A stretch of 18,943 bases of DNA. Origin: a virus. Its lineage: Duplodnaviria > Heunggongvirae > Uroviricota > Caudoviricetes. The stretch is from IMG/VR virus record IMGVR_UViG_2529293214_000009. The stretch is one strand, 5' to 3'. The position numbers are program-made. Positions 3,001 to 6,000 of the stretch are shown here, piece after piece (position 1 is the first letter of the stretch; each line of letters starts with the position of its first letter).

Positions 3001-6000
3001 AGCGATTCGCTCAGGTCCTGTATCGCCTGAGTGGACGGAGACTGTGCCCGGGATGCACGCCCCATGGCCTGCCTGCTTTCACGTCCGCCGATGGTGAAGC
3101 CCTTACCTGTACGGGGCAGTGACACCACACCGTCAACATCCTGACCTTTCAGGGGAACGTAGTAACGGTAGGCGTTCTGCCAGGCATCCACCACACCGTT
3201 CTCTTCAAGTCCGGCCTCACGGATAAGCTCACGGCGACGGGCCAGCATATCGTCAATAATCCCTGCCAGACGGTCATACTGTGCCTGTTTGCCACTGTTA
3301 CGTACACGCTGCATGATTTCCGCCGCTTCCGCGTTGGTCATCCCCGAACCGCCGTCCGGCATTTTCGGGTTGATTTTCGCGATATGCGCGTTACGTTCCG
3401 GCGCGTGACGGGCGTAGAGGTACTCATCCAGATCGGCCTGCGCAATTTTGTAGTCCGCCAGTAATTTAGCCAGTGGCTGAACGTAGCGCTCCTTCATCAC
3501 GTTCAGGTCGTTTTCCGCCTTCCCGTGGAAGAGTTCTTCCGCCATATAAGCGTTGTTACTGTCGTCCACTTTGCCGCCAGTTTTACGGATATTCTCCTGA
3601 ACAGCTTTCAGCACCTGGAATTTATCCTGCATCTGGCGCACAAAACGCGATGCAATTGTCTCTTCCGGTGTCAGACTGCTGGTACGGGAGTAATACGGCC
3701 CCTTGCGAATATCTTCAGGATAGAGTATTTTATCCGCAGAGCCGCGATAAGAATGTTCCCCTTTGGGCAATTGGAGCCCTCTGTGCAGAAGGTTATCGCG
3801 GCTTAATTTTTCTCTCCGGTACAACGTTAACCCGGTCATTTCCATACTCTTCAGTTTTTTTCCATTTTCTGTACCGTAAACAGAAGCTACCTTGTTGATT
3901 TCCAGACGCGACCGGACAGCCTTCATGTGTACCGCTGACACCACCGGATCACCATTTTTATCCACGGCATCAAGCAGCATCACAACCGCATTTCTTTCTG
4001 TCGCTGAGCGGTAAATTGCATCCGGATCGTGCATCAGTTCCGGTAGTCTCTCGATAACATCCATCGGCACCACATGTTTCACACCATTGGTGGCCTTCCG
4101 CACAGTATCGCGGGAAATAACCAGCGGCAAATCCGGTGCACCAAGGTGACGCAATACCGGCGGCGTACGCCCGATGTTTACCGTTAAATCTGTGGTGCGC
4201 AGAGATTTCATCATTCTGGCAAGGTCATCACGATAACGCTCGCCCTCACCTTCCGGCACTTTGAACGGATCACGTTTACCACTACGGGAGTACTGAAACG
4301 ATGCGCCCGCGCCATCCTCACGCGGCGTGTAACCTTCCCGCACACGCTGGCCTAACGTACGGATGGTCTCGCGAACAAGTCTGATATCGTTCAGTTCCGT
4401 CGGCTTCAGTAACCCCGTACGACGCAGTACCCCTTTGACCAGGGCAACAACACGCTCCCATGCCGCCACGAATTTATTCGGCTGTTTCTCCGCCATATGT
4501 GCCAGAAATTCACCCGCCTGTACTTCCGGTGATTCCTTACCATAGGAAGCATCAACCTTACGCCAGGCTTCACGGATGGTGACGTTATCACTGTCGCGGG
4601 TTTTCAGCACGGTTTTGATAATCGTCTGATATTCCGCTGGTGTGACAACATGCTCCATGGCATGGTGAATGATCTCGTGACGCAGCTTCTCGCGAACGGT
4701 CCGCCCGTCAGGGATGTTATCCGCCACCAGGACAATTTCTCGTTTATCCGGACGATAGAATGCGTGCACCCTGCCGTAACCATCGAACAATTCACCCGCC
4801 AGCGCTTCAGCCTCTTTCTGTGACTTCACCACACGGACCTTCAGGTCACTGTCCTTAATGCCGCTCATCACGCCACGGGCAACCGCTTCAACCTGCGGGA
4901 CCGGGCTGCCTTTGGCTTCCGCACTACGGTTAACATCCGAAATGAGATTACCTTCAGGTGTGCGGGTAACGCCCTTACGGGAATAAAACGCAACGCCCTT
5001 GTCCGTCTCACGGGTTTTCAGGGTGCGGAACAGGTGATCGAATGCCTCACGAATACCGCCATCCAGTTCCGCATTCGTCGGATAAGCGTAGGTGTTATCT
5101 GTGTTGTGCTCAGGTGCCTTACGGATATTGACCAGATAATCATTCTCCACGCCAGCCATACGCGCCTTATCCTGAACATAACGCTCAAAGGCACGTGCCG
5201 CCATTTCAACATCCGTTGACCAGTACGGTTTTGAGCGCACCTTATCGAGAAGCGCTGAACGACGCGGCATGTCACTGTTTTTAATGGCCTGAATCACACC
5301 TTTAAAAGCGTCGTAAACCTCCTGACGTACCGGATATTCAGCATCAACATACCTGCCGTCTTTAAATATGCGCCTGACACGCTGTGCTTCCGTCATAAAG
5401 TCGCCACCTGACGTAATTTTCCCGTCATTGGAAACGTCATAACGACCAAAATAATTATCCAGAGAATGGAACCATTCGTGCGCCAGCGCACCCGGTCCGT
5501 TACCTTTTGTCAGGTTGATTGCCACCTCACCTGACTCATAGTGTGCCGCCGCCTTACCCTTACCACGGGCACCAAATGCCAGGCCAAGACGACCGTTCAG
5601 GGAAAGCGCTTTTGTCGGTACATTCAGTACTTCCGCAAGGTCATGCAGCGAGTCATAAGCCCGGTTCAAATCAGCCTGACGACGCGGACCTTCCACGTAG
5701 TTACCAAACTGCACACCACGGAAACCAAACGCATCACTGAACTGCTCCGGTGAAACATTCCCCTTGCGGCGTTCTGGTCCGGTACGGTCGCGGTTGGTGG
5801 CGTTGCGCTGCTCCTCACGCGAAATCTCCCGCATCTCCTTCACATGACGAACAAGCTCATCACGATGTGAATCAATGTACTTACGCGCATCACTGGCTGA
5901 CTTAAAGCCACCTCTCACCCGCATTTTGTTTTTACCGTAAGCGATAAAAATATCGCCACTGCGGGTATTCCGGTAAACGTCAAAGCGGATTTTGTCATCC

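Follow-up and report, generated by a model that had tools for sequence, protein, structure and literature searches.

A probable gluzincin-type metallopeptidase domain in the giant virion protein of the Stx2-converting phage 933W

The giant gene of the 933W late region

The DNA analysed here, a stretch of 18,943 nucleotides referred to below as the window (IMG/VR virus record IMGVR_UViG_2529293214_000009), represents the late region of the Stx2-converting phage 933W of Escherichia coli O157:H7 EDL933, to which it is 99.9% identical; about 190 further Stx phages are matched at 90–100% identity. Its largest open reading frame (ORF) occupies positions 948–9368 on the minus strand, has 2806 codons counted from the first ATG, and appears in RefSeq as ST933Wp72 / NP_049532.1, named only “LPD5 domain-containing protein”. 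Pfam recognises four domains in the product, LPD5, LPD1, MuF_C and LPD38, the LPD domains being the “large polyvalent protein” domains of Iyer, Burroughs, Anand, de Souza and Aravind 2017 (PMC5512222). The subject of this report is the unannotated gap between LPD5 and LPD1, which carries the sequence HEWFH and which, together with LPD1, probably forms a zinc metallopeptidase domain of the gluzincin type (domain 1).

Residues are numbered throughout from the first ATG, although the protein is likely to start at Met14 (position 9329), because the alignment of family PHROG 616 begins at residue 14. The initial annotation of this DNA had drawn attention to an HExxH motif at 5466–5480, about 1284 residues from the N-terminus. 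Translation of the minus strand does place His-Glu-Trp-Phe-His there (AHEWFH being encoded by 5466–5483), and the context quoted at the time, INLTKGNGPGALAHEWFHSLDNYFGRYDV, agrees exactly with the translation. The motif comprises residues 1297–1301, and its first His is residue 1284 precisely when the count begins at Met14. The features on which the argument depends are as follows.

948–9368, minus strand: giant polyvalent virion protein (ORF list, translation, 99.9% identity to 933W, RefSeq)
5730–6179, minus strand: LPD5, residues 1064–1213 (Pfam E = 6.5e-45), directly N-terminal to the core
5250–5729, minus strand: putative zincin core of domain 1, residues 1214–1373 (helix, three strands, HExxH helix, variable insert), covered by no Pfam model
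5535–5543, minus strand: H1276-Y1277-E1278, second strand of the core (model residues 212–215); H in 72/73, Y in 70/73 and E in 73/73 sequences
5466–5480, minus strand: HEWFH (H1297, E1298, H1301), on model helix 232–248; each His in 72/73 sequences, the Glu in 73/73
5457–5459, minus strand: D1304, three residues past the second His (HExxHxxD); D in 71/73 sequences
5010–5249, minus strand: LPD1, residues 1374–1453 (Pfam E = 5.2e-24), holding model helix 323–341
5184–5225, minus strand: YWSTDVEMAARAFE, Y1382 to E1395; Y1382, E1388 and R1392 each in 73/73 and E1395 in 71/73 sequences

Conserved residues of domain 1

A pattern as short as HExxH might be expected to turn up by accident in a protein of 2806 residues, and this was considered as an explanation of HEWFH. 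From the His and Glu content of the protein, however, only 0.037 occurrences are expected, and two are found, the second being HEIIH at residues 1564–1568 (window 4665–4679). A homologue search with residues 1214–1460 as query returned 356 proteins, and conservation was assessed in the 72 of these that span the query with an identity below 70% (33–66%), so that the counts given here are over 73 sequences. Across this range of overall identity both His residues and the Glu are 99–100% conserved, as the initial annotation had asked of a genuine site, and in a zincin-like model (see below) the motif occupies the helix where it is expected. A chance origin is refuted by these data, and we assign it a negligible probability.

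The conservation extends well beyond the motif. W1299, between the proposed zinc-binding positions, is kept in 72/73 sequences, and upstream and downstream of it stand the H1276-Y1277-E1278 triplet and D1304. Residues 1306–1369 contain no conserved position and constitute a variable insert, beyond which conservation resumes in the segment from Y1382 to E1395. The initial annotation had suggested looking for a third zinc ligand 15–40 residues downstream of the motif; what is found instead is the conserved E1388, 87 residues past H1301, a distance that varies from 43 to 133 residues (median 59) in homologues.

These positions allow an active site to be proposed. H1297 and H1301 would be zinc ligands and E1298 the general base, while E1388, which is invariant and is placed by the model on a helix C-terminal to the HExxH helix, is the likely third ligand, located inside Pfam LPD1. 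In the Zn-peptidases MtfA and lethal factor a Tyr about seven residues ahead of the ligand Glu is catalytic, and by analogy Y1382 is a candidate for the transition-state Tyr. R1392 and E1395 are proposed as second-shell residues, and H1276 and D1304 may line the pocket.

Predicted structure and remote fold relations

An AlphaFold model of residues 1064–1460, computed from an alignment of 70 sequences, has a mean predicted local distance difference test score (pLDDT) of 87 and a predicted template modelling score (pTM) of 0.80. The region around the motif, described as globular in the initial annotation, is modelled with pLDDT above 90. In model numbering, a helix (165–185) is followed by strands 199–202, 212–215 and 220–223, then by helix 232–248, which bears H234, E235 and H238 (H1297, E1298 and H1301), and, after the insert, by helix 323–341, which bears E325 (E1388). 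The model contains the N-terminal helix, three-stranded sheet and active-site helix of the zincin core, with HExxH, conserved across homologues, on an α-helix as in the zincin/gluzincin superfamily.

Foldseek comparison of the domain 1 model with the PDB gave no match at E ≤ 0.001, and zincins headed the list, with anthrax lethal factor at the top (E = 0.09). The closest folds are those of lethal factor and the Pro-Pro endopeptidases (PPEPs), and peptidases clearly outrank an oxygenase. The suggestion of a zincin-like domain is therefore upheld by conservation and predicted fold, without support from sequence profiles. As far as the model allows this to be judged, the tie to known peptidases is real but remote, and consists in a shared fold rather than membership of a MEROPS family.

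Such a fold might conceivably serve some purpose other than proteolysis, for example metal-dependent binding or scaffolding during packaging or ejection, or the chemistry of another kind of HExxH enzyme. We regard this as unlikely, since the general-base Glu and the Tyr and Glu of the later helix are invariant (73/73), as expected of a working active site, and since the ranking of structural matches favours peptidases over the oxygenase.

A second zincin-like domain

The second HExxH motif belongs to a further domain (domain 2), which starts about 30 residues past the end of the first module in 933W.

4320–4922, minus strand: second zincin-like peptidase domain, residues about 1483–1683 (conservation, model)
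4662–4679, minus strand: HEIIHH, residues 1564–1569, readable as HExxH or HExxxH
4488–4511, minus strand: EFLAHMAE, E1620 to E1627, Glu helix of domain 2 (model helix 136–149)

Searching a word-indexed database with domain 2 recovered close fragments only. An exhaustive search of representatives with residues 1454–1762 (E ≤ 1e-3) gave 422 representative proteins, mostly giants of 1,000–6,000 residues, in which H1564, E1565 and H1568 are 99–100% conserved, E1620 99% and E1627 93%. The family consensus, RHEILxHHGL, reads as HExxxH, and an invariant Glu of the family alignment (E142) lies in the EFLAHMAE helix. The model of domain 2, with pLDDT above 86 in the core, begins with a helix and three strands, which the HExxH helix and then the Glu helix follow. 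Both domains occur together in 32 representatives, and in all 32 domain 1 is found directly upstream of domain 2, the gap having a median of 14 residues. When the two domains were compared by hhalign, the match was weak (E about 1e-3, probability 23%), but strand 2 to HExxH were aligned in the correct register. Domain 2 is a second zincin-like domain, different from domain 1.

Module architecture and distribution

The order of the parts of domain 1 was examined in an independent set of 147 representative proteins, collected with the second domain as query. LPD1 directly follows the HExxH core in 30/30 cases, and LPD5 directly precedes it in 27/30. On this comparison of sequences the conserved unit is LPD5, zincin core and LPD1. 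Because LPD1 holds the invariant Tyr/Glu/Arg/Glu helix, it is best taken as the C-terminal part of the peptidase, bearing the Glu helix, and not as a separate domain. A correction of annotation is suggested accordingly: Pfam LPD1 would be that half of a peptidase which carries the Glu helix, the half with HExxH lacking a model. LPD5 itself has a detached part.

6525–6626, minus strand: N-terminal motif split off from the LPD5 module (KKIEDFGEEIKGAAKHRY...), residues 915–948 (query-free profile match)

Between this conserved motif, EDFGEEIKGAAKHR, and the remainder of LPD5 about 160 residues are inserted, and the same split occurs in other giant proteins. A homologue profile built without the query matches residues 915–948 weakly (6.3 bits) and residues 1111–1460 strongly.

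Among isolated phages the first module is found almost exclusively in Stx phages; the few distant exceptions include a Bacillus phage. It is also present in 424 plasmids, both conjugative and mobilizable ones among them, of Acinetobacter, Bacillus, Vibrio, Xanthomonas and others; one example is a 1241-residue protein of a Moraxella bovis plasmid. Solo proteins about 330 residues long, consisting of LPD5, core and LPD1, account for many of the metagenomic homologues. In phage contigs their genes are found among small early-type genes, next to and divergent from the terminase/portal/capsid block.

From these solo forms it follows that the module can function with no polyprotein attached, which keeps a trans-acting, possibly host-directed role in play. 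In that case the domain would be an active zincin acting as an injected or early effector on a host substrate, a defence or envelope protein for instance, with no processing of phage protein. The many solo homologues, with nothing to process in cis, and their place among early-type genes suit this explanation, as do the plasmid occurrences and the fact that the closest folds, lethal factor and the Pro-Pro endopeptidases, are trans-acting and substrate-specific. On the other hand, no candidate substrate is known, the solo forms could equally cut other phage or plasmid proteins in trans, and in the giant proteins the module lies between long linkers and is paired with a second peptidase, an arrangement that suits processing. 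A host substrate as the sole target is accordingly a possibility of the second rank. More tentative still is the proposal that LPD5, zincin and LPD1 together make a self-contained trans-acting effector protease, delivered by phages and plasmids or expressed by them early, and directed against one specific host protein, such as a defence component. If true, an effector protease would be injected from Stx phage capsids as part of a giant protein; its target would be the first substrate for any polyvalent-protein metallopeptidase, and the protease a new anti-host weapon in phages of enterohaemorrhagic E. coli.

Virion data and the proposed mechanism

The orthologue of the giant protein in phage phi24B, gp47, is abundant in virions yet invisible in the cryo-electron microscopy reconstruction, and has been proposed to be an ejection protein (10.64898/2026.04.10.717836). 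In the supplement to that preprint, gel-band counts are given protein by protein and the peptides are pooled. Spectra of gp47 number 2188, 1686, 1187 and 1260 in the four uppermost bands; all four run above the 80-kDa portal, and the spectra tail to about 50 kDa. The tryptic peptide GNGPGALAHEWFHSLDNYFGR, which contains the HExxH motif, was detected in phi24B virions by mass spectrometry (10.64898/2026.04.10.717836). Since this peptide and the other gp47 spectra come from virions, domain 1 is physically inside the virion, mostly within very large species. The concentration of gp47 in the top band would also fit an effector aimed at host proteins.

The phi24B authors proposed that gp47 digests peptidoglycan, and a capsid protein of a short-tailed phage must indeed cross the envelope; on this account the metallopeptidase would clear the wall so that the ejected protein could form a periplasmic channel. 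The preprint (10.64898/2026.04.10.717836) ties the idea to MuF-C, which it labels a metallopeptidase, whereas MuF_C is predicted to be a BECR-fold RNase-like domain and not a peptidase (PMC5512222). That label conflicts with both Pfam and Iyer et al., and the metallopeptidase-like domains of the protein lie upstream of MuF_C. Solo homologues among early genes, moreover, are a poor fit to a wall-breaching role, and no cell-wall peptidase is found among the top structural matches of either zincin domain. The known cell-wall metallopeptidases (M15, M23, LAS type) differ in fold and motif, which also counts against a peptidoglycan substrate. Taken together, these points make wall digestion very improbable.

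We favour proteolysis after ejection. With a rough probability of 0.7, residues about 1214–1453 are a gluzincin-type zinc metallopeptidase domain, and proteolysis by the two zincins after delivery is the most likely mechanism. By extension from the phi24B orthologue, the giant protein would be packaged in the capsid and would presumably leave it together with the DNA at ejection. The metal would be bound by H1297 and H1301 of the HExxH helix and by E1388 of the later helix, E1298 would act as general base and Y1382 would stabilise the transition state. The 300-kDa polyvalent protein has long linkers, proline-rich or of low complexity, at which both peptidases may cut it and so free its modules, and host proteins might be cut as well. 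Self-processing is placed slightly ahead of host targeting.

Several results weigh against this interpretation. To our knowledge there is no polyvalent-protein peptidase with a known substrate. The search against metallopeptidase profiles suggested in the initial annotation was negative: Pfam, applied at E ≤ 1 to the giant protein and singly to 70 homologues of domain 1, reported no peptidase family, the homologues giving LPD1 and LPD5 only. PDB sequences searched with the single sequence and with the family profile likewise returned nothing relevant. For MtfA, the E. coli peptidase to which domain 1 bears some resemblance, hhalign of the family profile gave E = 0.09 over 20 columns, confined to the HExxHxLD stretch, and the Smith–Waterman alignment was not significant (51 of 500 shuffles reach the score) and did not find the Glu helix. 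The solo forms, which have no attached polyprotein, argue against self-processing as the only role. Most gp47 spectra being in the top gel band, the bulk of gp47 is unprocessed in the virion; its partial fragmentation is compatible with processing or with storage, the phi24B sample having been kept for six months before analysis (10.64898/2026.04.10.717836). The protease activity of ArdC is reported to be dispensable for antirestriction (PMC7213743), and the 2026 paper on the structure of N4 virion RNA polymerase (vRNAP) does no more than note HExxH in its C1 domain, describing no function.

No other gene product of the 933W/phi24B group of Stx phages is as large as the giant protein, which is abundant in the virion and without an assigned activity. 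Its two intact putative zincin sites offer targets for mutation (H1297, E1298 and E1388; H1564, E1565 and E1620), and these bear on whether giant proteins, once ejected, are divided into functional pieces or act against the host. Further interest lies in the medical relevance of the phage and in the question of what these peptidases cut.

Other regions of the giant protein and neighbouring genes

Downstream of the two zincin domains, Pfam recognises two further domains.

3813–4082, minus strand: MuF_C, residues 1763–1852 (Pfam E = 1.3e-17)
1287–1904, minus strand: LPD38, residues 2489–2694 (Pfam E = 7.8e-48)

LPD38 sits within a conserved C-terminal region of about 950 residues (window 951–3800, minus strand) which, in tblastn comparisons, recurs in the giant proteins that other podoviruses, about 60 kb in size, encode. 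It is 22–41% identical to giant proteins of Vibrio and Ralstonia phages, of Bacillus phages Page and Pascal and of the archaeal Methanosarcina virus MetMV, and the giant protein of Burkholderia phage BcepMigl (“DarB-like antirestriction”) matches it in the same range. A link of these 950 residues to an N4-like virion polymerase, a question raised by a PHROG of about 3,400 residues, was dropped, tblastn having given the giant proteins of these other viruses instead.

Three similar short motifs, RPRLPAPGD, RRGLPSPD and REGLPAPD, occur at residues 745–860 (window about 6789–7136, minus strand). The stretch that holds them, upstream of the peptidase module, is proline-rich and probably disordered, and the motifs may be repeats of a linker, cleavage sites or binding sites. 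That Pro-Pro endopeptidases are among the closest folds to domain 1 is recorded here alongside this proline-rich trio.

According to the RefSeq annotation the giant gene closes the late block and is preceded by tail-fibre genes, lom and several small ORFs. Immediately upstream of it, a 421-residue ORF (9399–10664, minus strand) has no Pfam match; its phi24B orthologue, gp48, was found in virions, with a gel-band peak at the expected size. An 83-residue ORF (10675–10926, minus strand), annotated as “bacteriocin”, matches Gly-zipper and class IIc bacteriocin weakly and below threshold, and its homologue was regarded by the phi24B authors as a contaminant of virion preparations (10.64898/2026.04.10.717836). 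The match to 933W covers window positions 1–18919 in two pieces against 19009 bases of the phage record, the final 24 bases being unaligned. From these lengths, the window and the record differ by an indel of about 90 bases, probably at about 18600–18943, near the tail-fibre end.

Comparison with known systems

E. coli MtfA (M90, PDB 3dl1; K-12 sequence) shares with 933W the form of the motif, HEVAHKLD against HEWFHSLD. The third-ligand helices, AYAASDPAECFAVLSEYFF in MtfA and PYWSTDVEMAARAFERYV in 933W, can also be compared, although the likeness to MtfA Y..SDPAE..A...SE is by eye only. Identity is 12%, the Tyr-Glu spacing is 7 in MtfA and 6 in 933W, and MtfA is a cytoplasmic bacterial protein, not a module of mobile elements, and lacks LPD5. 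The relation is one of resemblance only, and membership of domain 1 in M90 is not supported. Anthrax lethal factor and PPEP-2/-3 (M34), toxins or sheddases that are secreted, carry other accessory domains and have no significant sequence similarity to domain 1; a profile search of PDB sequences gave no hits at E ≤ 10, so that the likeness is one of fold only.

The C-terminal metalloprotease of ArdC (R388; PDB 6sna) is absent among the domain 1 matches listed, and searches of the phage genomes revealed no sequence-level relation to N4 or P1 proteins. ArdC and the N4 vRNAP C1 domain differ from 933W in their partners, which are ArdC-N and an RNA polymerase respectively. The Pfam model MPTase-PolyVal, which we take to be PF18818, an ArdC-type zincin, had no match at E ≤ 1 in the giant protein or the 70 homologues. 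This model, derived from Iyer et al., misses domain 1, the C-terminal half of which Pfam calls LPD1.

The closest correspondence is with the polyvalent proteins, whose commonest domain is a zincin peptidase, present in some in more than one copy (PMC5512222). Processing of the polyprotein by these peptidases (autoprocessing) was proposed by the same authors, who record that N4 vRNAP, ArdC and TraC1 are transferred unprocessed (PMC5512222). Domains of this kind, and the role they are likely to have, were thus already in print in 2017, and what is new here is an unannotated member in 933W, an incremental gain. The main text of Iyer et al. does not mention the 933W protein, and assignment to their clades is by verbal description. 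[quoted passage not shown] Domain 1 matches this description, with H1276 in strand 2, HExxH with D1304 at +3, and a downstream Glu helix preceded by a variable insert. An HEXXXH clade of these peptidases was also described (PMC5512222), and domain 2 of 933W fits it, with HExxxH spacing in its family, a downstream Glu helix and a predicted zincin fold. The 933W protein is itself a polyvalent protein, with LPD5, LPD1, MuF_C and LPD38, and like some proteins of that survey it has more than one putative peptidase domain.

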